IMG/VR virus record: IMGVR_UViG_3300029743_000013
Location: 1 to 40,074 of that record
Reading direction: 5' to 3' (one strand)
DNA: 40,074 nt
Source: a virus
The notes under the pieces are model-generated. The model did no database searches and was not told the origin of the DNA. It saw nothing but the letters and a program-made list of their open reading frames with translations. The position numbers and the translations under genes are program-made. This document shows positions 20,634 to 36,689 of the stretch, in pieces. How positions within the stretch are numbered: position 1 is the stretch's first letter; the number at the start of each line of letters is the position of its first letter.

Positions 20634-21038
20634 TTATCCATTTTTCAGCTCGTTTTCCAGAATGTCTCGATACTGCCCCGCATGGTCGGCGGCAGCGGGC
20701 TTCAAAAACGGCTGTGCCTTGTTGCCGTGGGTCATGTGCCAGTTGCCCTTCGCATCCTGATACACCCACGGCGTAGGCCGTCCGCCGCCGCCCTCGGCGT
20801 AAATGCCGGTACCAAGCTCGACGTAAGCGGCATACTCATTATTCGTTCCAATAATTGCCGCTGGTTCCTGCTCGTCTACCACACGGGTAATGCTGTTCCG
20901 CAGATTGCCGGTGTCAACAGGGCATAGTTTTTTTGCGTATCCCTCTGCCACCAGACCAACTTTTTCAAGCCCTCTTAGTAGCGCCGCTCCTATCTTGGTA
21001 GAAACTTCTGTACTGTGGTCTTGGATTTCGACTATCAT
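20634..21038 (-). CDS. HK97 gp10-family morphogenesis protein
   Basis: CPVDTGNLRNSI...GTNNEYAAYVELGTG...AQPFLKPA motifs. Confidence 0.8.
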   Translation of the reverse strand: MIVEIQDHSTEVSTKIGAALLRGLEKVGLVAEGYAKKLCPVDTGNLRNSITRVVDEQEPAAIIGTNNEYAAYVELGTGIYAEGGGGRPTPWVYQDAKGNWHMTHGNKAQPFLKPAAADHAGQYRDILENELKNG

Positions 21039-21049
21039 AGAAATACCTC

Positions 21050-21078
21050 TTGACTATTTCCCGACATTTGTATATACT
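21050..21078 (+). promoter_or_regulatory. consensus sigma-70-type promoter on the antisense strand (TTGACT-17-TATACT)
   Basis: TTGACT at 21050-21055, 17-nt spacer, TATACT at 21073-21078. It is followed by hairpins 21087-21102 (then GCTTTTT) and 21110-21148 (then ATTTTTTA). Confidence 0.45.
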
Positions 21079-21146
21079 GCATACGAGGAAACTTATGTTT
21101 CCGCTTTTTGAGCCGAACCTCTGCCCAGATCTGGCGGGGGGGCGGC

Positions 21147-22628
21147 TCATTTTTTATACCTTCTGACAAATAACAATGATCCGTCCAATTTAAGTGCCAT
21201 GACATCAAAATCAAAATTAAGATTTCTCATAGCCCTTGCATCAAGGATTTCGATAAGTGTTCTAATGTCGAATTCACGTCCACACTGCATCACAGCTCCG
21301 CCGGGATTATTCTTAATTTGTTGTATCGCCGTTCGTAGCGCCGAATCTGCCGCTTTTTCAGTTGAAATGCTTTTTAATTCCCACAGCTTTCCACGCCACA
21401 GGTAGTCTGGGGTTTTTATTCCCTGCACATTTGCTTCTTTCAACAGAACAATCTTACCGCCAAATTGATTCCGAATTTGGTTTGCAACTTCAATTTCATC
21501 CTTATGGTCTTTTGCGCGATAACCGTTTTCATATCGCATTTTGCCTATGCGTGGAGTGGCGCTTTCATTATATTTTTTTGTTATATCTTTTGCCGTGCTT
21601 TTGAACCCACTATGATACGGCGAAATTGGTCTTGCGCCATATCCTCGCTTCGATGCCTCCCATTGCGCATAAGTCATGTCCGAGATTAACCCATCTCGCG
21701 ATCTTCGTAGCCCGTTTGATGTATCCACCCTATCCACATCCGCAATCAGCGTGCATCGGCAGTTATACACGAGGTAACCTGGCGCGGAAGTGTCCCCGGG
21801 GAACATGATCTCGTTCCCATCGGCCTTAAACGGCTTGTCAATATCTACCGTCTGACCGTCCAGCATGGCGTGAGCGTGTCGCGTGCGATTGTCCAGCGTC
21901 GCAAGCCATTGTTTCCTGAGCTTGACGCCCATCTTCTCCGCCGCCGCGTAGCTGTCCATGCGTCCGGCGTTCTGTGCTCCTGTCACGGCGGTTCTGGCCG
22001 TGCGGATGGCGGAATCGCGGCTCATAGTGGTAATGCGCATTTGCAGGTCGTCCGCCATGTGCTTGATGCTTTTGCCCTGCAAGATGGAACTGGTGACACT
22101 GGCCGTAATTTGTTTCTTGCCATACGCGAGATCAATGCCGCGTTTCAGCGCTCTGTCCTTCGGATAGTACGGCATCAACCCCGGCTGCTCCACGATCAGG
22201 CGTTTCACTGTCTGCTCGTCCCACAGGTCAAATCCAATGTCCCCGGCCACGCTCTCGATGGTGTACGCCGCATAGTTGCGGTTGAAGGAGTAGATACCGG
22301 GCGTTGCGTCGTTGGTGTAAGACACCGCCACGGCGTTTGCGTTGGTCACGCGCTGCGCTACCTTATCCCGCATGGCCTGATAGCGTTCCCCACGTCCGAT
22401 CTGATTGAGTCGCCATTGCTTATAGTCGGCTTCCGTCCATTCTTTACCGTTCTGCACAGTGCCGATCAGAGATTTCATTTCTTCGTCGCGCTTGGCAAAC
22501 TGCTCAAAGTATGTATCAATGGTCGCTTGCAGATCTTTCCCAGCCTCACGGTACAGCTTTGCAATGCGCCGTTCCAGTTTCGCAAGCTCTTGATCGGTCA
22601 GCTTGTGGCCAAGATCACTGGTCGCCAT
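21147..22628 (-). CDS. MuF/SPP1 gp7-family minor head protein with C-terminal toxin-like (PD-(D/E)xK-like) domain
   Basis: ATG 22628 after GGTGAT (track start TTG 22634). The MuF core includes YNCRCTLIADVD. The C-terminal ~150 aa are AT-rich and carry DEIEVAN...TPDYLWRGKLWELK. Confidence 0.85.
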   Translation of the reverse strand: MATSDLGHKLTDQELAKLERRIAKLYREAGKDLQATIDTYFEQFAKRDEEMKSLIGTVQNGKEWTEADYKQWRLNQIGRGERYQAMRDKVAQRVTNANAVAVSYTNDATPGIYSFNRNYAAYTIESVAGDIGFDLWDEQTVKRLIVEQPGLMPYYPKDRALKRGIDLAYGKKQITASVTSSILQGKSIKHMADDLQMRITTMSRDSAIRTARTAVTGAQNAGRMDSYAAAEKMGVKLRKQWLATLDNRTRHAHAMLDGQTVDIDKPFKADGNEIMFPGDTSAPGYLVYNCRCTLIADVDRVDTSNGLRRSRDGLISDMTYAQWEASKRGYGARPISPYHSGFKSTAKDITKKYNESATPRIGKMRYENGYRAKDHKDEIEVANQIRNQFGGKIVLLKEANVQGIKTPDYLWRGKLWELKSISTEKAADSALRTAIQQIKNNPGGAVMQCGREFDIRTLIEILDARAMRNLNFDFDVMALKLDGSLLFVRRYKK

Positions 22629-23952
22629 CGTCAATCACCGGCTCAGTCAAATCGATCACCTCTGCTGCCTTGCGCTTCATCATATCCTCATATTGGTCAA
22701 TGTCACCGTTGATCGTCAGAAGCTTCTTTGTGATGTATTCGTCATCGTAATACGCCGCGCCCAGAAGGACGTTCTGCGTTTCCTCGCTCTTGTTGATGAT
22801 CTGATTGCGCGTGTAGCTCGGCTTGTCTTCAATGCCTGCCAGGCGCAGAATCTCAACAATAAACCGCGTGACCTCGGATTCAAACTTGTCCGTCTTCAAA
22901 TCCAGAGGCACATAGCTGGCCTTAATTGCCGTTGCAGTCTGATTCCCAGCGGACACAGCCAAAGCGTCAAAGCACTGGAAATCCTCGTACAGCTTCTTCT
23001 TGAGCATATCAATGGTGCTGCTGGTGCCCTCATAGGGGGCCTCGATGGTTTTACTCTCCACCTTTGCGCCGTCATCGCCGTTGGCGTGGGCAACGTGCGT
23101 GGTTTTCAAGCGCTCCACAAATTTCGCATCGTCCAGATCGTCCATGCCGTTGCAGTTAGAAAGCACCCAATAGATTAGGTTGCCCTCATCCACATTGTTG
23201 ACCATGTTAGAGGACGCCAGATCCAGCGCGTCAATGGTGTTGCGCTTGCCGACGATCTCGGAAAGACACCGCTTGTTGTTTTTCAGTGGCACGATTGGGA
23301 AACTCGGATAATTGCCGCCGTCATAGATTTCGGTTTCACCGACATCAGCCTTGCGCTCGATCAGCTTATAGCTACGCTTCGGCTGCATGACGTCCATATC
23401 CTCGCCGCTGGGCTGGAAATATTCGGTAAAGCCGTCGATCTCATACAGCGTCGCTCTCAACGGCTTATCCTGTGCCACCTGCCAGAACCGGATACCGGCT
23501 TTCATCGCGCCGTCCTCCTCATCGTAGAGGGGGACAAACTCAAGCAGGGAGAACACGCGCAAATGCGTCAAATCCCAAAAGCCGAAGGACACGCCTGCAA
23601 TTTTTGCCTCACGTGCTGCATCCATGACTTCTTGATCGAAGTCCGGGCACAGTTTGTTCGGTGTTTCCTTCTCCGCAAAAGTTACGCCGTTGCCCAGCAG
23701 ATACGAGACTTCCTGATCCACCGCCAAGCCAAAGAACCGACTGGCCAGCTTGTGGTTTGCCGTCCACATATCCGTGTGGGCGCGACCCTGCATATCGTAG
23801 ATGATTTTTTCATAGCGGTTAATGGTTGGATTCAGACCGTTATAGTATTCCTCCGCATCCACCGCCGTCTTATATGCGTGGGATTCGCGATGCGCGTTGA
23901 TCGCGCTGCGGATAAACTCCATCCGCGCCTTTTCGTCCTCGCCCACCGCCAC
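22615..23952 (-). CDS. portal protein (SPP1 gp6-like)
   Basis: 445-aa track ORF with a GTG start. ATG 23922 (MEFIRSAINAHRE..), preceded by AAAGG, is a plausible true start. Confidence 0.88.
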   Translation of the reverse strand: MAVGEDEKARMEFIRSAINAHRESHAYKTAVDAEEYYNGLNPTINRYEKIIYDMQGRAHTDMWTANHKLASRFFGLAVDQEVSYLLGNGVTFAEKETPNKLCPDFDQEVMDAAREAKIAGVSFGFWDLTHLRVFSLLEFVPLYDEEDGAMKAGIRFWQVAQDKPLRATLYEIDGFTEYFQPSGEDMDVMQPKRSYKLIERKADVGETEIYDGGNYPSFPIVPLKNNKRCLSEIVGKRNTIDALDLASSNMVNNVDEGNLIYWVLSNCNGMDDLDDAKFVERLKTTHVAHANGDDGAKVESKTIEAPYEGTSSTIDMLKKKLYEDFQCFDALAVSAGNQTATAIKASYVPLDLKTDKFESEVTRFIVEILRLAGIEDKPSYTRNQIINKSEETQNVLLGAAYYDDEYITKKLLTINGDIDQYEDMMKRKAAEVIDLTEPVIDDGDQ

Positions 23953-23986
23953 AAGGTCATTATATGTCTTAATCTCCGCTCACCCC

Positions 23987-25252
23987 TTATCTCAGAATGG
24001 AAACATAATCGGAGCTGTCGCGCTTGTTCCACAACCGCTTTACGATGCTGGCCGCGCTGTCCGGCGCGTCATCATGCTCCGCGTTCTCGTTGTAATCGCA
24101 AATCTGGTCGATATACGCATTATCCGTACCAGCCACAAAAACCACATTGCGCCATTCCGCCTTGAGATAGCTTGTGATTTTAAGGAACTTATTCATGTTC
24201 TCGTGATAGGTAACAGCCCGTTCGCCCTTTGCACGCAGCGCCTTTGCCAGATAGCCCTTGTCCGCGTTGGTCTCGCAGTAAATCTCCCCAGCGTTGAAGC
24301 ATTTCCGCAATCGGACAATCTCGTCCATGCAATCGTCCACGTGCTTATGCCAAAGCCGCCCGTAGAGGTAATATGTTGTCCCCTTTTTCCGGGCAATCGT
24401 GAACGCCGTGTAGTCATCGCCACCGTATGCCGCGTCGATATGGCAAATGCCCTGCTCTGCAAGGCAAGGCTCCGCGCCCATCTGCGGCGTGTCAAAGATT
24501 ACATCGTCGCTGGCTATATGCCGCAACTCGTAGTTCGCCGCAAACAGGGATGACGTCATGGACGATTTGATGGTTTGCAATTCATCCACAGAGATCAGCC
24601 CAGTTGAATAACAATCGTGCTTTTCGATATTCGGCATCATGGAAAACGCGTCTTCCTTATGCCAGGGTGTGCCGGTGTTGAAAATGCGACCGCCACGGTT
24701 GCGGATGTTCTGCAGCTCCTGATAGATCGTTTTTGTATGATCCCGTTCTGCGCGAGAAATACGGTCCTGTACGTTTACAATATCGTCCGTGAATATGCGG
24801 TCGAAATGCTTACCGGTCAGGGAACCGTTCACGCCGCACGCCACAAGCTGGCTCGTGCCCTTGTTATCCGCTGCCAAATTTGTGGAAATCTCCGTTGCGG
24901 ATACCGTCGTCAAAATCAGCGGTTTCCCGTGGATCTTCTCGCACAGTGCCTCCATGTATGGCGATAGCAGCAGATTCCGCACCTGCCGCACAACCTCTTT
25001 CACGTCCGCATCCGTTTTTCGCATAAACAGCGTTTTGAGATTCGGCAGAAGAACGATGATCTCCGCTAGCGCAATCGAAACGCACGTTGTTTTATAACTG
25101 CCACGGTGCGCCTGCAAGGTTTTGTCCTCGTTCCCGCGCACCATATCCTGTATCCATACGTTGTGCAGCGCATCCAGCTTATTAAACCCAACAGCATGAC
25201 CGAACGCGATGGGGTTATGTATCAGCAGTTCCGCCGCTTGTATCCGCGTCAT
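23987..25252 (-). CDS. terL: terminase large subunit
   Basis: Walker A-like AHRGSYKTT, and a nuclease half with ..HIDAAYGGDDYTAF... 421 aa. Confidence 0.92.
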   Translation of the reverse strand: MTRIQAAELLIHNPIAFGHAVGFNKLDALHNVWIQDMVRGNEDKTLQAHRGSYKTTCVSIALAEIIVLLPNLKTLFMRKTDADVKEVVRQVRNLLLSPYMEALCEKIHGKPLILTTVSATEISTNLAADNKGTSQLVACGVNGSLTGKHFDRIFTDDIVNVQDRISRAERDHTKTIYQELQNIRNRGGRIFNTGTPWHKEDAFSMMPNIEKHDCYSTGLISVDELQTIKSSMTSSLFAANYELRHIASDDVIFDTPQMGAEPCLAEQGICHIDAAYGGDDYTAFTIARKKGTTYYLYGRLWHKHVDDCMDEIVRLRKCFNAGEIYCETNADKGYLAKALRAKGERAVTYHENMNKFLKITSYLKAEWRNVVFVAGTDNAYIDQICDYNENAEHDDAPDSAASIVKRLWNKRDSSDYVSILR

Positions 25253-25595
25253 TCTGCATCACCATCTTCTCCAACTCGTCCAATGCAATGCCCTTCGCGT
25301 CCGTCACCGCCACGTCCACGCTGTCACGCTGCCCCAAAAACTGTTTGCCGAGGAAAATCGCCATTGTAGCGTTTTTTTCAGCCAATCTCCACTGGCTCCG
25401 CCGCAGTGAAATTTTCCCCGCTCCTCGCTTTTGTTTAAATACCTCGGAAAAACTGGCATGATAGGTGCGTTTACACCAACTATCCAGCGTTTTATCGGTC
25501 ACATCAAACCAACCGCAGATTTCCTCAAGCGTGCATTGCAGGCCGCAGAGGTTTTCGAATTGCTTCTGATCTATTTCCTTTCTTGGCCTTGCCAT
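25215..25595 (-). CDS. terS: terminase small subunit
   Basis: MARPRKEIDQKQFENLCGLQCTLEEICGWFDVTDKTLDSWCKR is an HTH-type terS N-terminus. AAAGGAGGG RBS. Confidence 0.85.
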   Translation of the reverse strand: MARPRKEIDQKQFENLCGLQCTLEEICGWFDVTDKTLDSWCKRTYHASFSEVFKQKRGAGKISLRRSQWRLAEKNATMAIFLGKQFLGQRDSVDVAVTDAKGIALDELEKMVMQNDADTSGGTADT

Positions 25596-25687
25596 ACGTG
25601 CCCTCCTTTCTCTGCTGGCGTTTAATAAACTTCTCCATGTCCCGCTTCAAATACGGGCTGTCTGTTTTGGCAATAATCGCCTGTGCT

Positions 25688-26923
25688 TCATCTATCGTCA
25701 TTTCCCAAGCTTCGAACGATTGCCCATTCCCGCTCCGACAACTTCCAAATATCCGTGTTGACCTTTTCCGCAGCAGCCTTTTCCGCAGCAGCCTTTTCCG
25801 CAGCAGCCTTTTCCGCAGCAGCCTTTTCCGATAGCAAAAAGCCGGAGCCGAACAAGCCTTTCCCCGACGCTTTCTGTGAGTCAAGTGCGCGGATAAAATG
25901 TGCATCTCTTTCGCTAATTTCAAGGCTTACGCCGTGAGCTGCCATATAACACAGCATCGTTGCTGTCAAAACCTCGTCTGGATATGAGTATTTCGGCAGT
26001 TCTCTGTGCAACTTTTTGAGATTCTTTTTGTTCTCGTCATCCAGTATTTCTCTTAAATCAGCAGCAGCGACAATCTTATTGCCCCCCATGTTGGTAACAA
26101 ACGACGTATTGACAGACGCGCCGTTTTCATACACAACTCCGCACCCGCACGCCACATAGTTTGCCGAGCCTCGCATAATTCCGAGGAGCGTAAGCGTCGG
26201 AGCAAACAGAAAAAAGTTGATTCTCTTGCTTGTGTACCACTCGCAGATTTCTGAAATAATGGAAAAAGGTGGATTGTCTATCACAACACACCCGGAAGGG
26301 TATTTCTCGCTTTTATAATCTCCGCCCGGATAAAACGGGCGCACAATCGCGGCATTGCCAATTTCGTACTTCTCAGCCGCCCAATCTCTTACTGCGTCGT
26401 AGATGTTATCTGGCGTGTAGCAATCGTCCGTTGTTTTCTTCGCTTCAAACTTTTTCAGAAACTCTTGATATTCTTCGTCATCGTCCGAAAGTTCCCCGCG
26501 CTCCATTCGTTCTCTAAATTCCTGTTCACGTTCTTCGTTAGTAAGTTCCGTTTCGTCGGTATCTCGGAAATCCCAGTCAAAATCAAACGCCGACAAATCC
26601 AGCCCAGGCAGCTCGTCAGCCAGGAGGTCAAAGTCCCAGTCGCTCTCGTTGCTTTTATTATCCACCAGCCGCAGGGCGTTCACCTGCTCCGGTGTCAGAT
26701 CATCCACGCAGACACAGGGCACTTCTTCCATGCCCAGCTTCTTTGCCGCCATAGCGCGGCAGTGGCCAATTACAATAACACCATCTCGGTCAATCACAAT
26801 CGGCTGCACGAACCCGTACTGTTTAATGCTTTCGGCCACATTGTTGATTTGCCGTCTGTCGTGCTTCTTGGCATTTGCAGCATACGGCATAATATCCGCC
26901 AGCCGCTTGTTTTTTACTTCCAT
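25688..26923 (-). CDS. ParB-like nuclease domain fused to N6-adenine DNA methyltransferase
   Basis: ATG 26923 after AAAGGAGG. ParB-N motif VQPIVIDRDGVIVIGHCR, methyltransferase motif IV VVIDNPPF, and a C-terminal (EKAAA)x4. Confidence 0.85.
   Translation of the reverse strand: MEVKNKRLADIMPYAANAKKHDRRQINNVAESIKQYGFVQPIVIDRDGVIVIGHCRAMAAKKLGMEEVPCVCVDDLTPEQVNALRLVDNKSNESDWDFDLLADELPGLDLSAFDFDWDFRDTDETELTNEEREQEFRERMERGELSDDDEEYQEFLKKFEAKKTTDDCYTPDNIYDAVRDWAAEKYEIGNAAIVRPFYPGGDYKSEKYPSGCVVIDNPPFSIISEICEWYTSKRINFFLFAPTLTLLGIMRGSANYVACGCGVVYENGASVNTSFVTNMGGNKIVAAADLREILDDENKKNLKKLHRELPKYSYPDEVLTATMLCYMAAHGVSLEISERDAHFIRALDSQKASGKGLFGSGFLLSEKAAAEKAAAEKAAAEKAAAEKVNTDIWKLSEREWAIVRSLGNDDR
25762..25829. 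repeat. 15-nt tandem repeat x4 (gcagcagccttttcc), coding (EKAAA)n
   Basis: Perfect units at 25770, 25785, 25800 and 25815. Confidence 0.95.
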
Positions 26924-27191
26924 GTGGCCTCCTTTTTCTGACGCACCGGCCTCCCACCACTGGTCTTTGTCATTGGCACGTCTTTCCCAGGCTTTCGCCA
27001 CACCCTAATGCTAATTTTTGCGCGTTTTCCCCGTCAGGGCGGAGCCGCCGCCCCGCCCCACAGGGTAGAAAAGAGGGGAAAAGAAATGAATCGGCACGGG
27101 CAGGTTGCCCCTGCATATCCAGCATACCTATATGTATATCTCCCGCGCACCCCTCAAACGAAAAATTTTTTTATATTTTTCATTCCCCCTC

Positions 27192-27220
27192 TTGACATAC
27201 CACGCAATGCGTGGTAATAT
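27192..27220 (+). promoter_or_regulatory. consensus promoter (TTGACA-17-TAATAT) with a 6-3-6 palindrome in the spacer
   Basis: TTGACA at 27192-27197 and TAATAT at 27215-27220. The spacer contains ccacgc-aat-gcgtgg (27200-27214). An A/T-rich UP-like tract lies upstream. Confidence 0.6.
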
Positions 27221-27275
27221 ATAGACAGATCAAGAAACAGTGCAGCCGCACAGCGGCAGAAAGAGGAGGAACATC

Positions 27276-27509
27276 ATGAAGAAGCTTATCGACACCGCCA
27301 CCAACACCACGATCTGTGAGATCGTATCCAACCACAGCATGACGCTGGACGAGGCCATCGAATGCGCCGGCGGCGAGATCATCAACGATGCCAACGATGA
27401 GCGCTGGTCCCCGGAGGAAAACGTCATCATCGACGGCGTGTACTACTGCTACGACGATCTGGATCTGGTCTACATCCCCGACGAGATCTCCCCCGCCGCC
27501 CACCGCTGA
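27276..27509 (+). CDS. 77-aa strongly acidic protein (cassette gene A)
   Basis: AGAGGAGGA sits 6 nt before ATG 27276. MKKLIDTATNTTICEIVSNHSMTLDEAIECAGGEIINDANDERWSPEENVIIDGVYYCYDDLDLVYIPDEISPAAHR. Confidence 0.7.
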   Translation: MKKLIDTATNTTICEIVSNHSMTLDEAIECAGGEIINDANDERWSPEENVIIDGVYYCYDDLDLVYIPDEISPAAHR

Positions 27510-27518
27510 CCACCCGCC

Positions 27519-28115
27519 ATGCGAACGAAAAAATGCATCACCTGCGGCAAGGTGTTCTCCACAGACCGCGCCGAGCAGGCGAAGTGTGATGACTGCCTTG
27601 CCGCCGCCAGATCCACCACCCTGCGCACCCGAACCTGCCACACCTGCGGGGCTGCCTTCACCGGCGGGCCCCGCGCCCGCTACTGTCCCACATGCCGGGC
27701 CGAGCGGCAGAAAGCCCGGGAGCGAAAGTACCAGGCCACCGGTTACTCCCGGCACCTGGGAGACATCGATAACTGCATGATCTGCGGCGGCGAGTATGTC
27801 ATCCGATCCGGCCTGCAGAAGTATTGCCCCAAATGCGCACCGGATGCCGTCCGCGAAATCGACCGTGCGCAGGCCAACCGCTGGAACGCCGAACACGATT
27901 ACCGCGCCAAGCGCCGTGAAACACCCCGCCGGGGCGTCAAGGTCTGTGTTGTCTGTGGCCGGGAAATCGTCCCCGGCACCCCCACCGTCACCTGCTCTCC
28001 GGAGTGCGCCGCCGCCCATCGGAAAGAGGCCCAGCTTCGCGCGGACGCCAAGCGCCGTGGCCAGAACAGGAAGAAATCGACGCCAACCGAAGCCAAAAAG
28101 GAGAAATTACCATGA
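27519..28115 (+). CDS. basic protein with four CxxC...CxxC zinc-ribbon modules (cassette gene B)
   Basis: CITC..CDDC, CHTC..CPTC, CMIC..CPKC, CVVC..CSPEC, and a Lys/Arg-rich tail. No obvious SD. Lies 9 nt after gene A. Confidence 0.65.
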   Translation: MRTKKCITCGKVFSTDRAEQAKCDDCLAAARSTTLRTRTCHTCGAAFTGGPRARYCPTCRAERQKARERKYQATGYSRHLGDIDNCMICGGEYVIRSGLQKYCPKCAPDAVREIDRAQANRWNAEHDYRAKRRETPRRGVKVCVVCGREIVPGTPTVTCSPECAAAHRKEAQLRADAKRRGQNRKKSTPTEAKKEKLP

Positions 28116-28453
28116 CCACCGACAAACTGTTCTACACCTTATTCGGCGACGCCATCACTTCGCCCGACCGAGACGCTTTTGTCTCCGACTGGTCGTTGTC
28201 CTCCGTCTGGGGCGATGCGTCGGATGCGGACATCCCCGCAGACCGCATCGATACGCTGGCGCGTCTCTGGGACGCCGCCCACCTGACGATCCGCGACATC
28301 CGGCAGCACACCGGACTATCCCAGGTGGCCTTTGCCACCCGCTACTGTATCCCCACCCGCACGCTGGAGGATTGGGAGCGCGGCGCACGGAGCTGCCCCG
28401 ACTACCTCCGCCTCCTGCTGGCACAGGCCACCGGCCTTTACACAAGACCATGA
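28112..28453 (+). CDS. HTH (XRE/MqsA-C-terminal-like) protein with acidic N-terminal domain (cassette gene C)
   Basis: ATGA overlap with gene B. IRDIRQHTGLSQVAFATRYCIPTRTLEDWERGARSCPDYL. Confidence 0.75.
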   Translation: MTTDKLFYTLFGDAITSPDRDAFVSDWSLSSVWGDASDADIPADRIDTLARLWDAAHLTIRDIRQHTGLSQVAFATRYCIPTRTLEDWERGARSCPDYLRLLLAQATGLYTRP

Positions 28454-28457
28454 CGAC

Positions 28458-28491
28458 AAAAAGAGGACACCATGTAGGTGTCCTCTTTTTT
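28458..28491. terminator. bidirectional rho-independent terminator
   Basis: aaaagaggacacc / atgta / ggtgtcctctttt, with an A-run before and a T-run after. It lies between convergent genes. Confidence 0.85.
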
Positions 28492-28563
28492 AGGTTTCCA
28501 CGTCCTCATGAAAAACCGTCTCCCGCACGCAGCTTCCTAAGCCATTCTGGGAATTCGTTCATG

Positions 28564-28860
28564 TCAGAAATTCCTCCCCAATGCGCCCATGATCTTCTTG
28601 TCCACTTCCGTCAGTGTAACCAGCGCGTATTCCAAGTCATAATCCATCGGAGGAGGCCCCGGCAAATCGCACTGTATAATATCCTCTGGGAAAAACGTCT
28701 CCCGCACGCCCTTGCACTCCGCCACGATGTAGCGCCCCTTTGGGTGCACATACACCACCGTTGCCTTGCGCACGGGGTACTGTTTTTCGGCCTTTCCGGA
28801 GCCGGGGAACGGGTCCGGCATCGTCAGAAAGCGGGCGCGCACCGTATCATCGATCTGCAT
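28564..28860 (-). CDS. hypothetical early protein
   Basis: ATG 28860 preceded by GGAGGTG. MQIDDTVRARFLTMPDPFPGSGKAEKQYPVRKATVVYVHPKGRYIVAE... Confidence 0.65.
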   Translation of the reverse strand: MQIDDTVRARFLTMPDPFPGSGKAEKQYPVRKATVVYVHPKGRYIVAECKGVRETFFPEDIIQCDLPGPPPMDYDLEYALVTLTEVDKKIMGALGRNF

Positions 28861-29059
28861 GGCCGCACCTCCCATTCATGGCGTTCCACTTCCTGGTGGC
28901 ACAGGACTGGCTGTCACCGGAGACGGTGTAGCCGCAGCCGCCGCAGCGGACGTAGTAACGCAGGGGGACGTTGACGGATTCCTTGCGCTTGCCGCTGTCC
29001 ATGCCGCAGCGGGGGCAGGTGGACAAGTCTGTGATTGGTTTGCGGTTACGTGCGTTCAT
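28847..29059 (-). CDS. Lar-like zinc-ribbon protein (restriction-alleviation family candidate)
   Basis: CPRCG...YYVRCGGCGY...ATRKWN matches the Lar-family pattern from memory. Confidence 0.55.
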   Translation of the reverse strand: MNARNRKPITDLSTCPRCGMDSGKRKESVNVPLRYYVRCGGCGYTVSGDSQSCATRKWNAMNGRCGHADR

Positions 29060-29753
29060 AACCGACCACCAGCTTTTCCATCGCCTTCCGGATCACACTG
29101 CCGCCGTAGGCATCCTTGGTCAGGGCCAGAAACTCTCGCAGGGTCATGGTGTCGCTGTCCACGTCTATTCCGTGGTCGCGGGCAAACTGACGGCGGCCCA
29201 TGTCGCAGCTTCCGGTAAGGCGGTGATGCCAGTCATAAAAATACTGCGCAGGGTATGCCCTGCCGTCCTCCGTCTCTTTCAAAAATGCCGCGATGCGCTC
29301 CTCCACCGGCATATCTCCAAACAGCTTGTCCCTAAGAGCCTCCATCGCCTTTGCCAGCGTTGCACCGTGGGCAAAGATGTTATCCTGTTTGGCAACGTAG
29401 CAGTTCGTAGTGGTCAGGTCGCGGTTCAGGATCACGCCGTGCGCCACGTTCCCCCGCACGTGGCGGAGGATCGTGGGCACCCCGTCGATGGTATACACCG
29501 GTTCGCTGTTAAAGGATCTTATGCCGTCGCCGTAGCCGGAGCCGGAGCCGGAGCCGTAGCCGGAGCCGGAGCCGTCGCCGTCGCCGTCGCCGTAGCCGTC
29601 GCCGGAGCCGTCGCCGTAGCCGGAGCCGGAGCCGTAGCCGGAGCCGGAGCCGTCGCCGGAGCCGGAGCCGTAGCCGGAGCCGGAGCCGTCGCCGTCGCCG
29701 TAGCCGTCGCTTACAGACAAAAATGCTTTGACTTTCTCATCCAGCGCGCTCAT
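29046..29753 (-). CDS. protein with N-terminal (G/S/Y/D) low-complexity repeat and conserved-looking C-terminal domain
   Basis: ATG 29753 after AAGGAG, in an ATGA overlap upstream. About 60 aa of GYGDGDGSGSGYGSGSGDGSGSGYG..., then IRSFNSEPVYTIDGVPTILRHVRGNVAHGVILN... Confidence 0.75.
   Translation of the reverse strand: MSALDEKVKAFLSVSDGYGDGDGSGSGYGSGSGDGSGSGYGSGSGYGDGSGDGYGDGDGDGSGSGYGSGSGSGYGDGIRSFNSEPVYTIDGVPTILRHVRGNVAHGVILNRDLTTTNCYVAKQDNIFAHGATLAKAMEALRDKLFGDMPVEERIAAFLKETEDGRAYPAQYFYDWHHRLTGSCDMGRRQFARDHGIDVDSDTMTLREFLALTKDAYGGSVIRKAMEKLVVGYERT
29524..29710. repeat. degenerate 6-nt-based coding repeat (gccgga/gccgta/gccgtc)
   Basis: Seen directly in the sequence. Encodes the GS(Y/D)G tract. 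Confidence 0.9.
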
Positions 29754-30082
29754 CGCTTCCACTCCTTCACGCCGCTGATGGATGCCGTGGCCTTTTCGGT
29801 GCAGGGGATCACCTGGATCACCCCGGTCACTTCCATCAACGGTACCGTCACAGTAAACTTGCAGTCACCGGGGGTCTTGGTGCCGTCCATAGCCAGTTGC
29901 TCGATGGCGCAGGCACCGTTCCAGTACCACAGCTTGCGCACATTGGTCATGGTCGCTTCCGTGCCGCGTCGTTCCTTGATGCCACCGAAAAACACGCCTG
30001 CGCGGTCGCAGCGGACAATGTACATCTGCTCGTTCTTCTCGTTCTTCTCGTTCTTCTCGTTCTTCTCGTTCTTCTCATTCAT
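29750..30082 (-). CDS. small protein with N-terminal (NEK)x5 repeat (core resembles DUF6948-like phage proteins)
   Basis: ACGGAGGAAAG RBS before ATG 30082. MNEKNEKNEKNEKNEKNEQMYIVRCDRAGVFFGGIKERRG... Confidence 0.75.
   Translation of the reverse strand: MNEKNEKNEKNEKNEKNEQMYIVRCDRAGVFFGGIKERRGTEATMTNVRKLWYWNGACAIEQLAMDGTKTPGDCKFTVTVPLMEVTGVIQVIPCTEKATASISGVKEWKR
30026..30079. repeat. 9-nt tandem repeat x6 (cttctcgtt)
   Basis: Four perfect units at 30035-30070, flanked by one imperfect unit on each side. Confidence 0.95.
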
Positions 30083-30127
30083 GGTATCTTTCCTCCGTAT
30101 TTTTTATTTCACCGGCATGCCGGCGTT

Positions 30128-30466
30128 TTATTGATTTCGTTCGCCGTAAGAACAAAAGTCCTCCGGCTTTCGCTTCTGCCAAGCCGCTGAGTGTATGTTG
30201 CCGTCCGAGTAAATTTTCAGGCAGACACCCATGTCGTAGTGCTTGCAATCCTTGCAGCATACCACCGGAGCAACATCAGCGGCGGGAGCACCGTTTACTT
30301 CCCGCAACACTTTGGCAGCCAGCAAGTACGGGATTTCCTGTGGGTTCTCCGAGAACACATCCTTGGTGTAAACAGCACCGTGATAACGCTTCGTGTTTTC
30401 GATTGCTCTCGCACCGGCGTTCATGGCAAGCATGAGTTCTTCCGTGCGTTCGATGTATTCAGCCAT
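30128..30466 (-). CDS. hypothetical early protein (MAEYIER.. family)
   Basis: ATG 30466 is preferred by analogy with the MAKYIERDAL remnant at 30894. C-terminal CCKDCKHY..C. Confidence 0.65.
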   Translation of the reverse strand: MAEYIERTEELMLAMNAGARAIENTKRYHGAVYTKDVFSENPQEIPYLLAAKVLREVNGAPAADVAPVVCCKDCKHYDMGVCLKIYSDGNIHSAAWQKRKPEDFCSYGERNQ

Positions 30467-30647
30467 TTTCAGCACCATCCCATTCTAACGGTTTGCCGCA
30501 CATCGGGCATTTTTCAGCCTTCTTCTCTTCGACCACCAGCCCCAACTGCCGCTTGCAATGCGGACAGTACGGTATATGCCACCAGCCGAAACTTCCGCCA
30601 AGTTTCCATTTCTTGTCGCAGTAAAAAGGCTTTTTAGGTTCAGCCAT
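30459..30647 (-). CDS. zinc-ribbon protein
   Basis: CAGGAGGACTGACA RBS. CPHC...CPMC. Confidence 0.65.
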   Translation of the reverse strand: MAEPKKPFYCDKKWKLGGSFGWWHIPYCPHCKRQLGLVVEEKKAEKCPMCGKPLEWDGAENG

Positions 30648-30671
30648 TGTCAGTCCTCCTGTTCAACGCTT

Positions 30672-30848
30672 TCAGCCAGTTTGGATAATTCTCCACTCCT
30701 CCGGCCTTTTCTGCGCGGCCCTAATTTGTTCCAGTGGCCCGCGCTCCTCACACACAGCGTACTGCTTCCAACGGTAGCTTTGGAACGTGCGGTTTTTAGT
30801 CAGCTCCTCGTGGGGGATGTAGAGCGATTTGTACTCAAGAACATACAT
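30672..30848 (-). CDS. 58-aa hypothetical protein
   Basis: GAGGGGG lies upstream of ATG 30848. MYVLEYKSLYIPHEELTKNRTFQSYRWKQYAVCEERGPLEQIRAAQKRPEEWRIIQTG. Confidence 0.5.
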   Translation of the reverse strand: MYVLEYKSLYIPHEELTKNRTFQSYRWKQYAVCEERGPLEQIRAAQKRPEEWRIIQTG

Positions 30849-31122
30849 CGCCGATTCGCCCCCTCAGCGCGTCCCGCTCAATGTATTTAGCCATTGTCAG
30901 CCCTCCTGCACATAGCACCAGCTTTGGGGCGGGCGCTTGAGGTGCAGGCTCTCGTTGCCGGATGTAGTCCTCGTGCGGGTACTTCGGCAGTGTGCAGTAG
31001 ATGTACACCCTGAACGGTGTGTTCAGCTTCGGGCGGGTCTTGCGCACCTCAATGGTCTTTTCGCCGTTGACGATCTTCTCGCACCACTTCGGGCGGATGC
31101 TTATCATCACAGATTTGCTCAT
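30835..31122 (-). pseudogene. truncated ASCH-domain gene read through into the RBS and start of a truncated MAKYIER.. paralogue
   Basis: ATG 31122 after AAAGGAGG. MSKSVMISIRPKWCEKIVNGEKTIEVRKTRPKLNTPFRVYIYCT is ASCH-like for only about 50 aa. The frame then crosses caggagggctgacaATG (30894) and stops 19 codons later. Confidence 0.5.
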
Positions 31123-31136
31123 GCCTTTTCCTCCTT

Positions 31137-31295
31137 TTAGCTCATATTTCGCACTGTCAGCGCGGTATACAGGATACACGCACCCAGCCATTGCAAACTG
31201 GTAGCCCAGTCTCCCTTGCTGGCGATATTTACCACCAAACTGCCCAGCGCACCGGCTACCATCAGCAGCGGGAAAACAATTTTCAAAATTTCCAT
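31137..31295 (-). CDS. 52-aa membrane protein
   Basis: MEILKIVFPLLMVAGALGSLVVNIASKGDWATSLQWLGACILYTALTVRNMS. TGATG coupling upstream. Confidence 0.5.
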   Translation of the reverse strand: MEILKIVFPLLMVAGALGSLVVNIASKGDWATSLQWLGACILYTALTVRNMS

Positions 31296-31513
31296 CACTC
31301 CACCTCCACATACGCCAATCTCAAAATATCGTCTACTAAACTGTCACAGCTGTCGCAGATGTAATCACCAGAATCATCGTAAAACTGATATGCTGTGCAT
31401 GGTACAGCTTTAATCCCGGTGTATAACTCCAAACGTCTGATAAATTCGCCGTAATCGAATTCTTCAAGCGTTCTAAGCTCTTGAAACTGTTGTCTTGTGA
31501 TGCTGCTCGTCAC
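31295..31513 (-). CDS. 72-aa acidic hypothetical protein
   Basis: GTG start after CAGGAGGTGAA. GTGA overlap upstream. Confidence 0.6.
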   Translation of the reverse strand: MTSSITRQQFQELRTLEEFDYGEFIRRLELYTGIKAVPCTAYQFYDDSGDYICDSCDSLVDDILRLAYVEVE

Positions 31514-31824
31514 TTCACCTCCTGACCCCAGAATTCTTTACGACAGTCAGCGCACAGCCGTTTTGTACAGTTACCGTATCTGTTCCGGCAATCAGTGGAA
31601 ATGCGCTTTGGGCATAGCACCAAACACCCGCTGCTGTCAATTTCCCCCTCCGGATACTGCGCCAGAAACACGCTTTGCCGCGTTTTGCGCGGATGTGCGG
31701 CAGACCACGCTTCGACTTCTGCGACGACATCTTCTGCTTTCGTGTTATAATCGTTAATGCCTTTCTTGATACATCCAAGTGTATACATTCTTCTGCGCTC
31801 CTTGACAAACTTCACAGCGTCCAT
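31510..31824 (-). CDS. hypothetical Cys-rich protein
   Basis: AAAGGAGGAAAAG RBS. 104 aa. Confidence 0.65.
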   Translation of the reverse strand: MDAVKFVKERRRMYTLGCIKKGINDYNTKAEDVVAEVEAWSAAHPRKTRQSVFLAQYPEGEIDSSGCLVLCPKRISTDCRNRYGNCTKRLCADCRKEFWGQEVK

Positions 31825-32121
31825 TTACTTTTCCTCCTTTTCCGCCACGGCCTTGGCAAACTGCGCCAGTCCATCACTCATGTCCGCGATCTGCGCATCC
31901 CGCCGCAGTACAGTATCACGCAGGGCGGCGTTGGCCTGCAACAGTGCCTCGATGTGCCGCTGCTGGTTCTCGATCAGGTCAGCGGCGGCAACATTTTTCT
32001 TTGTGCAGCAGTCGCCCAGTTCGTCGCACGTGTTGTAAAACGCGCAGGTTGTTCTGCACTCATATTCGCAATCAAGGCTTGCACAGCACCGCAGCGCGGT
32101 CACGATCTCATCTCTGGACAT
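31825..32121 (-). CDS. hypothetical protein (Cys-rich N-terminus, coiled-coil C-terminus)
   Basis: AAAAGGAGCAGG RBS. 98 aa. Confidence 0.65.
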   Translation of the reverse strand: MSRDEIVTALRCCASLDCEYECRTTCAFYNTCDELGDCCTKKNVAAADLIENQQRHIEALLQANAALRDTVLRRDAQIADMSDGLAQFAKAVAEKEEK

Positions 32122-32366
32122 ACCTGCTCCTTTTTGTACCTCGTAGCAAAGTCTCCAGCTTCATAGCGCTCACACCGCTCCATTTCGGGTGTCCTGACCT
32201 TGATGCTGGGGAGTTCCTTTCTGCCAAGGGCATATTCCTCCCGGTGCTTCAACAGCCAATCACGGTAACACTTTCCCTGATCACTGTTTTCCACCATGAC
32301 GCAATACCCACTCCCCGCTGGGCCTTTTCTGCTTTCATCCAGCCATTTGCATCCGTGACAATTCAC
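32100..32366 (-). CDS. hypothetical Cys-containing protein
   Basis: GTG start after AAAGGAGGAG. 88 aa. Confidence 0.6.
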   Translation of the reverse strand: MNCHGCKWLDESRKGPAGSGYCVMVENSDQGKCYRDWLLKHREEYALGRKELPSIKVRTPEMERCERYEAGDFATRYKKEQVCPEMRS

Positions 32367-32367
32367 G

Positions 32368-32523
32368 TTACTCCTCCTTTTCCCACCGAATTTTCATTTG
32401 TGCCGGATATAGGTCAACCTCCGGTCTGCCCACAATGGCAACGCCCACGATCTTCATACCGTCCGTGCAGCCAAAGTTGTCCACGATGATCTCACCGGTC
32501 ATCGTCTCTTGTGCAAAAACCAT
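32368..32523 (-). CDS. 51-aa hypothetical protein
   Basis: MVFAQETMTGEIIVDNFGCTDGMKIVGVAIVGRPEVDLYPAQMKIRWEKEE. It fills the gap between the flanking genes exactly. Confidence 0.45.
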   Translation of the reverse strand: MVFAQETMTGEIIVDNFGCTDGMKIVGVAIVGRPEVDLYPAQMKIRWEKEE

Positions 32524-32526
32524 ATC

Positions 32527-32802
32527 CTAATCTCCAAAGCCCACGCCGTACTCCTCCGCCAGCATATCCTTGATATGCCGCCGCCGGATGCGGCCATTGT
32601 TGATCTCCTGTGTGATCTTCTCCAGGCACTCGTACAGATACGCGATGCTCTGCGTGTCTCGGCTGTCCGGCGTCTCCTCCTGAACGTGCCAGCCGCACTT
32701 GTCCAGCAGCGCCATTGCCACCATGTCCATGCACTCCTGCGTACCGCGCCGCTTGCCGTCCATAAAGATCCGGTCGTCCCGGCTCAAATGCTGCTTGCCC
32801 AT
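32527..32802 (-). CDS. hypothetical protein
   Basis: AGGAGTGAGG RBS. 91 aa. Confidence 0.6.
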   Translation of the reverse strand: MGKQHLSRDDRIFMDGKRRGTQECMDMVAMALLDKCGWHVQEETPDSRDTQSIAYLYECLEKITQEINNGRIRRRHIKDMLAEEYGVGFGD

Positions 32803-32803
32803 G

Positions 32804-33877
32804 TCAATACCTCACTCCTATGTAGTCCAGCACCCGCGCATAACCAAGGCCGTCTTTCGTGGGCTTCCACAGCCCGTCCGTGTCGAATGCGCCGCCGCCG
32901 ATGCAGAATTGGTAGTGCTTCGGGTGCGTTTCTTTCATGCGCTGAAATCGGTTGATCCCCTTTTCCAGATGCGAACCGAAACCGCAGAACATACAGCCCG
33001 TTCTTTGGCAGCCAGTGCAATGCAGCTGGCAGTCCACCAGCGTCGCGTCGTAGTCGTTCTCGCCGTCGCTGGCCACGATGTCGCCGTACACGCTGGCGTA
33101 GGGGAGTTGACGCTCCACGATAAATTGCAGCACATCCTGCTCCGTCCAGAAACTCATGGGCTTAGATAAGGGACGCCTTCCATCAAAAGCGTTGCAGCCG
33201 GTTTCGCGCCATTTTTGCATACGCAGAAGACTTTCCTCCGCCATTGTTGCCGTCGTGGGCTTGACATCCGCTCGGTGCTCATAGCTCTTTGCCGGGGACT
33301 TTTTCATAATTCCACAGCACTTGTCTGATATGAGAAATGGAGCCGAAAGCAAATACGCCCACTTTTCACAGTTGTACATACTCTTTTCCCCATCGGCGCG
33401 TAAGACTTCCCCACGCAATAGCTTCATACTTCGGCTATCTGGAGAACGCCGCGCGGTTTCTATCCGGTGCGCTACGTCTTTACCGATGATGCTGTACCCG
33501 TACTTCGTCACCACATGCAGAATGTTCATCTTCGGACGCAGGCGTACAAGATTGACAGTCACGCGGAGAAACTCCCTCCGCAGCCACGCGGCGTACTCAT
33601 TCACGAACTTCTGAATTTCAGGGTATTCCAGCCCGGTATTCACAAACACCAGATTCAGCTCCCACGGCGGCGTCCTGAAACTCGCCAGATACCGCGCCGC
33701 CAGATACGCCAGCACCGTGCTGTCCTTGCCGCCTGAAAACGACACATAGCACTGTCCGCCCCATGCGGTGTACCACTCGTCCAGTTTCTCGTAGGTGGTC
33801 AGTTCCTTTGCCGTCAAATCCAGCGCCATCAGCTTTCGTGCCGCATCTTTTGTCAGCGGCTGATTTGTCGGCATCAT
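32804..33877 (-). CDS. PAPS-reductase-family (PP-loop ATPase) protein with C-terminal Cys cluster
   Basis: YVSFSGGKDSTV is a PP-loop. The C-terminal cluster is CTGCQRTGCMFCGFG. ATG 33877 after GGAGGAGGG. Confidence 0.85.
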   Translation of the reverse strand: MMPTNQPLTKDAARKLMALDLTAKELTTYEKLDEWYTAWGGQCYVSFSGGKDSTVLAYLAARYLASFRTPPWELNLVFVNTGLEYPEIQKFVNEYAAWLRREFLRVTVNLVRLRPKMNILHVVTKYGYSIIGKDVAHRIETARRSPDSRSMKLLRGEVLRADGEKSMYNCEKWAYLLSAPFLISDKCCGIMKKSPAKSYEHRADVKPTTATMAEESLLRMQKWRETGCNAFDGRRPLSKPMSFWTEQDVLQFIVERQLPYASVYGDIVASDGENDYDATLVDCQLHCTGCQRTGCMFCGFGSHLEKGINRFQRMKETHPKHYQFCIGGGAFDTDGLWKPTKDGLGYARVLDYIGVRY

Positions 33878-34065
33878 CACTCGCCCTCCTCCAGACGCAC
33901 CACCTCATAGCATCCGTAGCTTCCGCCGTGCCGGAACGCCTTGCAGATACCCACACGGACATTCTGATATTTCCGACCGGACAACTGCGCCAGCTCCGCC
34001 GTGGTCGTACCCCACCAGCGGGGCAGGCGGTACTTATCGCGGGTGACGATCATGTAGACTGTCAT
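33877..34065 (-). CDS. 62-aa hypothetical protein
   Basis: ATG 34065 after GGGAGGTG. MTVYMIVTRDKYRLPRWWG... Confidence 0.55.
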   Translation of the reverse strand: MTVYMIVTRDKYRLPRWWGTTTAELAQLSGRKYQNVRVGICKAFRHGGSYGCYEVVRLEEGE

Positions 34066-34067
34066 GC

Positions 34068-34493
34068 TCACACCTCCCGGATGGCGAATCCGTACCGATT
34101 GCGGAACAGCTTTGCTTTCATGGCATACTCCCGCGTCCGCACACCCTTCACGTCCTCCACCACCGGCAACCAGTGCCGCTGACCGTAGCTGTCAGGGGAC
34201 GTCCGGCGCTCATACACGAAGTCCGCGATGTAGTCGATACTTTTCACGCGGTCGCCCTCAAACGTCGTGTACGCCTCTTGCAAGCAGTATCGCACCTGCA
34301 ATTTCAGCCCGCGTATCTCTCCGGTCTTTTGCAGCAGCATCAGCGCATCGTAGCGCTCCGCCTCCTTCTTGCTGTCAAAGGTCAGCTTGCCGCGCCGCGT
34401 CTTCTGGGCCTTGTACTTGCTTGGCTTGCGCATCTTCTCCATGACCTGCTTCTGTGCCGCAGGCCCCAGCCGCATCAGATCTTCACTGTTCAT
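34068..34493 (-). CDS. DUF1064-like (PD-(D/E)xK, resolvase-like) protein
   Basis: KYKAQKT..FDSKKEAERYDAL..IDYIADFVY..VEDVKG pattern, from memory. Confidence 0.7.
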   Translation of the reverse strand: MNSEDLMRLGPAAQKQVMEKMRKPSKYKAQKTRRGKLTFDSKKEAERYDALMLLQKTGEIRGLKLQVRYCLQEAYTTFEGDRVKSIDYIADFVYERRTSPDSYGQRHWLPVVEDVKGVRTREYAMKAKLFRNRYGFAIREV

Positions 34494-34695
34494 CCAACAA
34501 CCCTCTTCTCTCCAGTCCGCGCTTGCTCATAGTGTAGCGCTTGACCGTCGTCATTTTCTGCTCTTTGCCGCAGCGCTGGCACACACCCTGCGCCCAGCCG
34601 CGGAACGCTGGCTCGATGATGTATTCCGCCGCCATCTCCTGCAAACAGGCCACGCACAGCCGCGCTCTGGCCACACGCCAGATGCCTTTATCCAT
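34483..34695 (-). CDS. 70-aa Cys-containing hypothetical protein
   Basis: AAGGAGG RBS. Confidence 0.6.
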   Translation of the reverse strand: MDKGIWRVARARLCVACLQEMAAEYIIEPAFRGWAQGVCQRCGKEQKMTTVKRYTMSKRGLERRGLLDEQ

Positions 34696-35712: not shown

Positions 35713-35725
35713 TATGCGCCCCCCC

Positions 35726-36688: not shown

Positions 36689-36689
36689 T

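Follow-up and report, generated by a model that had tools for sequence, protein, structure and literature searches.

What is the role of a small plus-strand gene cassette that lies, with a promoter and a terminator of its own, at the junction of the early and late genes of a temperate phage? The window analysed here is the whole 40,074-nucleotide stretch of IMG/VR virus record IMGVR_UViG_3300029743_000013 (positions 1 to 40,074). Family matches of its open reading frames (ORFs) identify it as a temperate siphovirus-like genome, and its hosts look like gut Clostridia related to the Oscillospiraceae. Positions 27192-28491 hold a consensus promoter, three coupled plus-strand genes (A, B and C) and a bidirectional terminator. 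An earlier reading made without database searches (hereafter the sequence-only reading) had proposed that this cassette controls late genes, constitutes a toxin-antitoxin or abortive-infection module, or encodes an anti-defence set. Our comparative data favour the last of these, and suggest an anti-defence operon in which C would act as the autorepressor, a reading to which we assign a probability of approximately 0.6. It is favoured because a constant frame contrasts with swapped cargo, because the operator covaries with the regulator, and because AcrIC5, CasPR-like and Tad3 proteins are found among the neighbours of related cassettes.

Constant frame and exchangeable cargo

The promoter and the strong bidirectional terminator that had been named as the bounds of the cassette were both recovered by scanning and folding (Table 1). 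The promoter matches the consensus at 10 of 12 positions and is the sole strong sigma-70-like site that the scan returned within 26500-29000. Its spacer is occupied by a perfect palindrome, a feature that the sequence-only reading did not contain. The core 15-mer of this palindrome, CCACGCAnTGCGTGG, has one exact copy in the whole window, at the cassette's own promoter, where it forms the pattern TTGACA-ta-CCACGCAnTGCGTGG-TAATAT. Promoter and palindrome are nearly base-for-base identical in approximately 46 related loci, across differing cargo sets and at promoter-to-C distances of 479-1432 nt. The conserved unit starts at the -35 hexamer and ends at the stop codon of C; the sequence 5′ of the -35 hexamer varies by genome context.

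At least nine cargo sets were found between the promoter and C. Those with A are A+B and A with an acidic ‘WNGEEY’ protein, the latter with or without B. Those lacking A, named by cargo family, are F2+F1 (the commonest), F2+F3+F1, F2+F21+F1, F8, F11, F3 and F15+F16+F19. Most of the cargo proteins are small, and several of them acidic. Ten representatives, drawn from seven window-slot families and three acidic proteins of B-linked cassettes, had no match in PHROG. The Pfam set of ten was partly different, comprising the AcrIC5-like protein described below and nine cargo representatives, the seven window-slot families included, for which nothing exceeded the Pfam cutoff.

A search centred on C recovered 67 IMG/VR loci, mostly without B, and the majority keep the flanking genes of the window but lack both A and B. 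In these siblings, the ParB-methyltransferase gene on one side is up to 91% identical and the downstream 103-aa gene on the other up to 92%; C occupies the slot between them at 85% identity or more in dozens of phages. A search centred on B recovered 43 IMG/VR loci with three architectures. The A-B-C order is found in seven, all close relatives; an unrelated 89-aa acidic gene followed by C (62% identical) and then B is found in 11; and the remaining loci have two other small acidic genes, a different Cys-rich XRE protein, and B. The second and third architectures adjoin lysis genes and a small sigma-region-4-like gene, not the early/late junction. Gene A also occurs in a two-gene A-C cassette without B, which lies between the endolysin and the integrase of another phage and has a C that is 84% identical and the operator variant CCACCCGCTGAGTGG.

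The unit thus consists of the promoter/operator, variable cargo and C. It is also mobile: the promoter-C frame is found at the early/late junction, beside genes for lysis and a sigma-like protein, and in the interval from endolysin to integrase. The three genes had been treated as a fixed combination, a notion that does not hold, as A, B and C are together only in the seven close relatives; A and B are exchangeable, and the promoter/operator and C are constant. What survives of the proposed co-occurrence is the B-C pair, which recurs across divergent lineages in both orders.

The palindrome in the spacer follows the type of regulator. C-type loci (approximately 85) have CCACGCAnTGCGTGG or related CCAC(GCA/TCA/CGA)...GTGG forms, with the variant half-sites CCACTCA and CCACCGA found where the C homolog is divergent. 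Loci with the XRE-Cys regulator (27) have GCTAATATTAGC or GCCTAnATAGGC instead. These tallies are non-independent, since many of the loci are close relatives, and no crossover between the two groups was seen in any of the loci compared. The palindrome nevertheless switches cleanly with regulator type, and we infer that C represses its own promoter through it. Loci that have B and loci that lack it share one operator, and B is also present with other operators; therefore, B is not the determinant of operator specificity and behaves as cargo.

Directly upstream of the Shine-Dalgarno (SD) sequence of A, the 5′ untranslated region (5′-UTR) forms a stem-loop that likewise persists across differing cargo sets. 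Its variants stay paired (GCCGC-tccca-GCGGC in locus L098; GGGC-aaaa-GCCC in L097, L015 and L127). Its possible roles include stabilisation of the mRNA and regulation at a second site, at the RNA level, as reported for some anti-CRISPR-associated (Aca) proteins. An Rfam search of the region returned noise only and no known RNA family. At its other end, the cassette shares its terminator with the convergent early operon, which the same hairpin closes. The predicted folding energies are -23.3 kcal/mol on the plus strand and -22.8 kcal/mol on the minus strand (z ~ -5.6), and a simple terminator scan missed the hairpin because its T-run pairs with its A-run.

Gene C was correctly described as coupled to B by an ATGA overlap and as encoding an acidic N-terminal domain followed by a helix-turn-helix (HTH) domain. 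Its N-terminal 55 residues include 11 aspartates or glutamates and four lysines or arginines, and HTH_3 matches residues 60-101 above the Pfam cutoff (E=1e-5). The further description of this HTH as XRE/MqsA-like is borne out for HTH_3; the resemblance to MqsA and HigA-2 is sub-threshold only. The MqsA model TIGR03830 gives 18.7 bits against a family cutoff of 61.8, and the nearest solved relatives are Atu1735 (E=1.6e-4) and HigA-2 (PDB E=0.048). Over its full length, C matches phrog_25567 (E=1.9e-16), a family of unknown function.

Table 1. Coordinates of the cassette features and of the divergent neighbouring gene in the window.
Feature	Position	Strand	Description
Sigma-A-type promoter	27192..27220	+	-35 TTGACA 27192-27197; 17-nt spacer; -10 TAATAT 27215-27220; TG-extended
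Operator, putative C-binding site	27198..27216	.	Perfect 9+1+9 palindrome TACCACGCA-a-TGCGTGGTA; occupies the whole -35/-10 spacer
5′-UTR stem-loop	27243..27259	+	GCCGC-aca-GCGGC; directly 5′ of the SD sequence of A
Gene A	27276..27509	+	77 aa; cargo, candidate inhibitor; strong upstream SD sequence AGAGGAGG
Gene B	27519..28115	+	198 aa; basic, four Cys4 zinc modules, Lys/Arg-rich tail; cargo, candidate nucleic-acid-binding effector
Gene C	28112..28453	+	113 aa; acidic N-terminal domain, C-terminal XRE-type HTH; putative autorepressor (Aca-like)
Bidirectional intrinsic terminator	28458..28491	.	Hairpin 28458-28490; 14-bp stem, A-tract on one side, T-tract on the other
ParB_N/methylase-like gene	25688-26923	-	First gene of the packaging operon; divergent from the cassette

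The acidic protein A and the zinc-array protein B

Protein A has 17 aspartates or glutamates, four lysines or arginines and an isoelectric point (pI) of 4.05, and the residue counts of the sequence-only reading were thus accurate. Its family is narrow, with 35 unnamed clusters that are all at least 66% identical. The AlphaFold2 model is confident (predicted local distance difference test, pLDDT, 86.8; predicted template modelling score, pTM, 0.70) and consists of a beta-sheet and one helix. A Foldseek search with this model found no structural relative (best E=2.8 in PDB and 0.13 in BFVD). A, the model of which points to a new fold, is a candidate direct inhibitor of a host immune protein. It is no homolog of AcrIC5, having no Pfam match. 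A similarity to a 54-aa protein of L154 (pairwise E=4e-4 over 29 residues) was rejected as weak.

A ‘GWNGEEY/W’ motif is common to several otherwise unrelated small acidic cargo proteins. It was seen in L012:3398-3682, in L047:4669-5004 and in an extension of the A ORF in L054 and L121; in L054, the domain with the motif is fused in frame to A, giving a protein of 157 aa.

Protein B contains 44 lysines or arginines, 21 aspartates or glutamates and 16 cysteines (pI 9.75). It had been described as a basic 198-aa protein with four CxxC..CxxC modules. Four Cys4 sites are indeed present, and the description fails in detail for the fourth, which is CxxC..CxxxC, as the cysteines form seven CxxC pairs and C159-x3-C163. 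The start codon was confirmed to lie 9 nt past the stop codon of A and to have no purine-rich SD sequence. Pfam gives generic zinc-ribbon and treble-clef matches, all sub-threshold, and the PHROG match is confined to the zinc-ribbon stretch of an ‘HNH endonuclease’ family. In the AlphaFold2 model (pLDDT 78.9, pTM 0.30), four hairpin-hairpin-helix modules follow one another like beads on a thread. No sequence relative was found in PDB, where a Foldseek search with the model retrieved generic multi-finger arrays only, CTCF being the best (E=0.12). B most likely binds nucleic acid.

The B family is large and unannotated, with 318 representative clusters at E<=1e-30 and 926 at E<=1e-10. Genome matches come from Oscillospiraceae, Faecalibacterium, Ruminococcus, Lachnospiraceae, Megasphaera, Selenomonas and Desulfovibrio piger. 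The family has an invariant core, which is made up of modules 2 and 3, and shorter proteins of Flavonifractor phage Cormatin, Paenibacillus phages and Blautia phage Montmirail match exactly these two modules. Such core matches are annotated as ‘TnpX recombinase’ in the Paenibacillus phages and as ‘HNH’ in Montmirail. An origin of B from the zinc ribbon of a large serine recombinase, as the ‘TnpX’ annotations would have it, was rejected, there being no similarity to the serine integrase of the window.

Some B homologs end in an AP2-like domain with a typical motif (Pfam E=3.7e-5 to 3e-3, sub-threshold), and others are fused to HTH domains. The homolog P0183 combines B modules with three HTH domains and a CxCxC-18-CxC module, the spacing of which equals that of the conserved cysteines reported for CapR (bioRxiv 10.64898/2026.02.23.707548). 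The B modules themselves were considered as CapR domains and rejected, as profile comparison gave no alignment of B to the CapR modules that a CasPR-like ORF in L047 contains.

Shortened forms of B were also observed. P0019 (265 aa) is an in-frame fusion of B modules 2-4 to C that arose by loss of the basic tail of B; it was set aside as evidence because it comes from a single contig and may be a deletion or an assembly artefact. A variant in L045 and L052 has an internal deletion that removes module 3. These variants represent either decay of B in some lineages or assembly artefacts.

Anti-defence neighbours, known systems and rival explanations

The company of B homologs links the cassette to counter-defence genes. 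In most of 59 genome loci, B has a DNA-binding partner beside it; it adjoins a C-family gene in 22, in both orders (B 34-60% and C 31-68% identical to those of the window), an XRE-Cys protein in six, and in six a 139-aa protein with a C-terminal ribbon-helix-helix (RHH)-like domain (DUF6364). In L049, a 57-aa acidic gene that overlaps the start of B belongs to the AcrIC5 family (Pfam PF22147, E=2e-20, 73 bits against a cutoff of 27). The namesake of this family, AcrIC5, has been validated as an inhibitor of type I-C CRISPR-Cas, and both Firmicutes and Actinobacteria carry homologs of it (PMC7913775). AcrIC5-like genes also lie directly 5′ of B in L131, L143 and L177, making four such loci. L143, from an Oscillospiraceae metagenome-assembled genome (MAG), has the promoter TTGACA-tc-CCACGCATTGCGTGG-TATAAT, with the operator of the window in its spacer, followed by a 66-aa AcrIC5-like gene, B (43% identical, E=3e-40) and C (31% identical, E=3e-13). 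Given the same operator and gene order, L143 has the layout of the window with an Acr-family gene in the slot of A.

Two further counter-defence families were detected. An ORF absent from the gene table of L047 (3567-4259) has CasPR architecture, with two CxCxC...C(x)xC modules and AP2 (E=0.0016); it is flanked by an 84-aa acidic gene and a C homolog, in an island that also holds a B homolog with AP2. When 62 same-strand neighbours of B homologs, drawn from loci L126-L184, L003 and L047-L049, were pooled and scanned with Pfam, one matched Tad3, a type I Thoeris inhibitor (E=2.3e-24). The scan also brought up a solitary Cas7. In L154, a Lachnospiraceae MAG, this homolog of the type I-C Cas7 protein Csd2 (5124-6005; Pfam Cas_Cas7 E=3.8e-67; PDB 8g9s E=3.5e-31) lies directly 5′ of, and overlaps, a B homolog (L154:5917-6363). 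The two sit in a plus-strand island with minus-strand genes on either side. The ORF list of this block, the neighbours in which were not individually searched, shows no other large ORF where more cas genes would be expected. This Cas7 homolog could be a decoy that poisons Cascade.

The cassette resembles anti-CRISPR (acr)-aca operons in several respects. The acr operons encode HTH repressors, the Aca proteins, that bind inverted repeats of the acr promoter (PMC8633003, PMC9410906), and an RHH member, Aca14, was described in 2026 by authors who asked whether zinc-finger proteins act in acr loci (PMC13551039). The window likewise has a strong promoter with an inverted-repeat operator and a small DNA-binding regulator gene inside the operon. 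Regulator and operator are constant and the small upstream genes are swapped, prophage positions vary, and an HTH or RHH regulator occupies the same position. As to validated inhibitors, A and B themselves match none, AcrIC5-family genes are present in homologous cassettes, and a Tad3 match and a CasPR-like ORF are among the neighbours. In contrast to operons with Aca1/Aca2-type HTH autorepressors, AcrIIA1 or Aca14, the cassette belongs to phages of Oscillospiraceae-like gut Clostridia and includes no known Acr gene, and C is Aca-like by layout, with best matches to phrog_25567 and antitoxin-like HTHs. C also has the additional acidic N-terminal domain. What appears to be new here on the acr-aca theme is best read as a regulator family with its operator, an orphan acidic protein and a large uncharacterised zinc-array family.

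A close functional analogue of B in the literature is CasPR. CasPRs are CapR+AP2 proteins of acr loci in Bacillota prophages that bind inside cas genes and block their transcription, mainly in lysogeny; some carry dispensable HTH domains that are thought to be autoregulatory (bioRxiv 10.64898/2026.02.23.707548). For B, the statement that it could be placed in no described system still stands as regards family membership. B shares with CasPRs the Cys-rich zinc modules and the occurrence in acr-type operons of Bacillota prophages beside conventional Acr genes. Members of its family combine zinc modules with AP2 and extra HTH domains, P0183 has the CapR-like module, and the CasPR-like ORF of L047 shares one island with B and C homologs. 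However, the B modules are CxxC...CxxC(helix) and those of CasPRs CxCxC...CxC, profile comparison aligns just the AP2-like tail of extended B homologs, and weakly, and the B of the window has no AP2 domain in Pfam. B is thus no CasPR, although niche, neighbours and fusion partners are common to both. A published AcrIC5 homolog in Cryptobacterium curtum adjoins a 196-aa AP2 protein, AP2 genes being frequent in acr loci (bioRxiv 10.1101/2023.05.22.541795), and some AcrIC5-linked B homologs end in an AP2-like domain, in agreement with that description.

In the anti-defence operon that we propose, the near-consensus sigma-A promoter would fire on DNA entry or induction and produce a burst of one A-B-C mRNA. 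Translation of B would be coupled to that of A, because B has no SD sequence and starts after a 9-nt gap. C, probably as a dimer, would then bind the palindrome in the spacer, block RNA polymerase by occupying it, and shut the operon, as Aca proteins do in anti-CRISPR operons. A would directly inhibit a host immune component. B would use its zinc array and its basic tail to bind nucleic acid, and would down-regulate a host defence locus or another target; by analogy with CasPRs, its effect may be to switch off a defence locus of the host or to strengthen inhibition in the lysogenic state. Within this reading, a role of B as DNA-binding effector is plausible at somewhat less than even odds, and its role as a second regulator unlikely. 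We would extend the proposal only tentatively, and with more doubt than conviction, to B as founder of a widespread class of zinc-array DNA-binding anti-defence proteins and to C as the first of a new Aca family. The B class would then consist of CasPR analogues with a different zinc module that silence host immune loci, such as type I-C cas operons, and act beside conventional inhibitors (AcrIC5, A) in gut Clostridia and Negativicutes.

Several observations weigh against an anti-defence operon. Neither A nor B has a significant match in Pfam, PHROGs (function), NCBIfam, PADLOC, PDB sequences or Foldseek, and no direct homology ties either protein to any inhibitor. The link to AcrIC5 is guilt by association through distant relatives (B 42-46% identical), and the AcrIC5-like match of L143 spans just 31 residues and was not scored with Pfam. 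The Tad3 match could not be assigned to one locus by a PDB search of a 35-candidate concatenate or by exact-sequence name look-up. DNA binding by B is putative, its model has a low pTM, and the AP2 matches of its homologs are under the Pfam cutoff. Many of the IMG/VR loci are close relatives from one metagenome project, so that counts overstate independence. Finally, the HTH of C is closest to HigA-2, MqsA-family and Atu1735-type proteins, and a conserved HTH autorepressor with shuffled partners is typical of toxin-antitoxin modules too.

These last points lead to the reading of the cassette as a type II toxin-antitoxin or abortive-infection module, in which C would be an autoregulating HTH antitoxin and B or other cargo a toxin neutralised through the acidic domain of C. 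Antitoxins that regulate themselves typically do so at a palindromic operator in their promoter, the XRE HTH of C has the ...TL(E/R)(D/N)WE.G.R.P... signature, and the toxin-first, partner-then-HTH order, the ATGA coupling and the charges of basic B and the acidic N-terminal domain of C would suit a binding pair. The B-C pairing recurs in many lineages, also as fusions, and such a joining of zinc module and HTH is seen in MqsA. Toxins and antitoxins are known to shuffle. Yet A and B match no toxin family in Pfam or NCBIfam and nothing in PADLOC, which leaves room for a toxin of unknown type, no MqsR/HigB-like toxin is present, and C scores far under the family cutoffs. Cassettes hold one to three cargo genes, the products of which differ from known toxins in being mostly small and in several cases acidic; C, with its N-terminal domain unchanged, is mostly without B, and B is found with RHH, other XRE or no partners. 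In-frame fusion of toxin and antitoxin is uncommon, and the recognisable neighbours are validated anti-defence families, not toxins. We consider a toxin-antitoxin module distinctly unlikely. If B and C were such a pair, B, with its zinc array, would represent a new type of toxin.

B could also serve the anti-defence operon as a second regulator, a zinc-finger ‘Aca’ acting, for example, on neighbouring operons or on acr timing. This is suggested by L049 and L177, where an AcrIC5-like gene and then B form an operon without an HTH gene, and by the wide conservation of B, the most widely conserved non-HTH gene of these cassettes. AP2 genes in acr loci were at first proposed to be regulators (bioRxiv 10.1101/2023.05.22.541795), and the Aca survey raises a part for zinc fingers in acr regulation (PMC13551039). 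However, the palindrome follows the HTH type and not the presence of B, and CapR+AP2 proteins once assumed to be regulators were shown to be inhibitors (bioRxiv 10.64898/2026.02.23.707548), which makes this role the unlikely one of the two given above. A generic moron, a host-benefit or superinfection-exclusion cassette with cargo directed at other phages and not at host immunity, would be consistent with a temperate phage carrying variable cargo at variable positions under its own promoter and terminator, and the CasPR study raises the silencing of competing phages as a possible use of DNA binders of this sort (bioRxiv 10.64898/2026.02.23.707548). Against it stand the absence of any PADLOC defence-system match, the tiny cargo proteins without enzymatic domains and the counter-defence families among the recognisable neighbours, and we consider it quite improbable.

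The proposal of late-gene control has to be weighed at the upstream border of the cassette, which is divergent from the packaging and late genes. The gap of approximately 350 bp without a good sigma-A promoter was confirmed, measuring 352 nt between the ATG at 26923 and that of A, with no sigma-70-like site on the minus strand in a promoter scan. B, basic and rich in zinc sites, would then be an Ogr/Delta-like zinc-finger activator of the divergent late operon, or B and C a switch for it, and both L048 and Flavonifractor phage Cormatin have a similar three-gene island that separates the early from the terminase genes. But B is missing from most siblings that share the late genes, promoter and C, the frame is also found at lysis and integrase junctions, the operator occurs in the window only at the cassette's own promoter, and B has no Ogr_Delta match in Pfam. 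The phage has a sigma-region-4-like gene (~8984-9280) that could serve late transcription. A developmental regulator is highly improbable, and of the three original ideas it is the one that the data disfavour most plainly.

An anti-defence operon at this locus would matter for several reasons. To our knowledge, phages that infect the dominant Clostridia of the gut (Oscillospiraceae, Faecalibacterium and Ruminococcus) have so far yielded very few anti-defence proteins, Acrs included. If the reading is true, it adds a new Aca-like regulator whose sharply defined operator is an anchor for guilt-by-association searches, and at least 12 unannotated cargo families, A included, as candidate inhibitors. 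It would also add a zinc-array family, B, that recurs beside AcrIC5-type genes and shares domain partners with CasPRs, extending transcriptional silencing of host immunity past the CapR+AP2 architecture and bearing on the question of zinc-finger proteins in acr loci posed by the 2026 Aca survey (PMC13551039). Should the more doubtful extension to new B and C classes also be true, the invariant operator of C could be a search handle for dozens of new inhibitors.

The surrounding phage genome

A large serine integrase is encoded on the plus strand at 4280-5641. The endolysin, the small and large terminase subunits and the early genes are on the minus strand, the early genes including Gam-like, exonuclease, helicase-loader, resolvase and PAPS-reductase-like genes. 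All family-matched ORFs of 9354-26923 and 28564-40025 are on the minus strand, and among the ORFs checked the cassette is accordingly consistent with its description as the only plus-strand island outside the lysogeny block.

The true start of the divergent ParB_N/methylase-like gene is the ATG at 26923, which has the strong ribosome-binding site AAGGAGG; a longer ORF from a GTG codon is too long. In its protein, ParB_N is fused to a domain matching phrog_21498, the N-terminal part has a further match to the DNA-methyltransferase family phrog_498, and the C-terminus has an (AAAEK)x4 repeat.

The small sigma-region-4-like protein is encoded on the minus strand beside the endolysin gene (9354-10052). 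It is 44% identical to the product of a sigma-region-4-like gene that is convergent to the B cassette in L015, L012, L047 and L049; the B cassette and this gene are neighbours in those phages and apart in the window. By its sequence, the protein is a candidate late-transcription factor. Among the early genes, a minus-strand gene at 29046-29762 encodes a 238-aa protein with an N-terminal low-complexity (G-S/D-G-Y)n region of approximately 70 residues, the PHROG matches of which are weak and to families of unknown function only.

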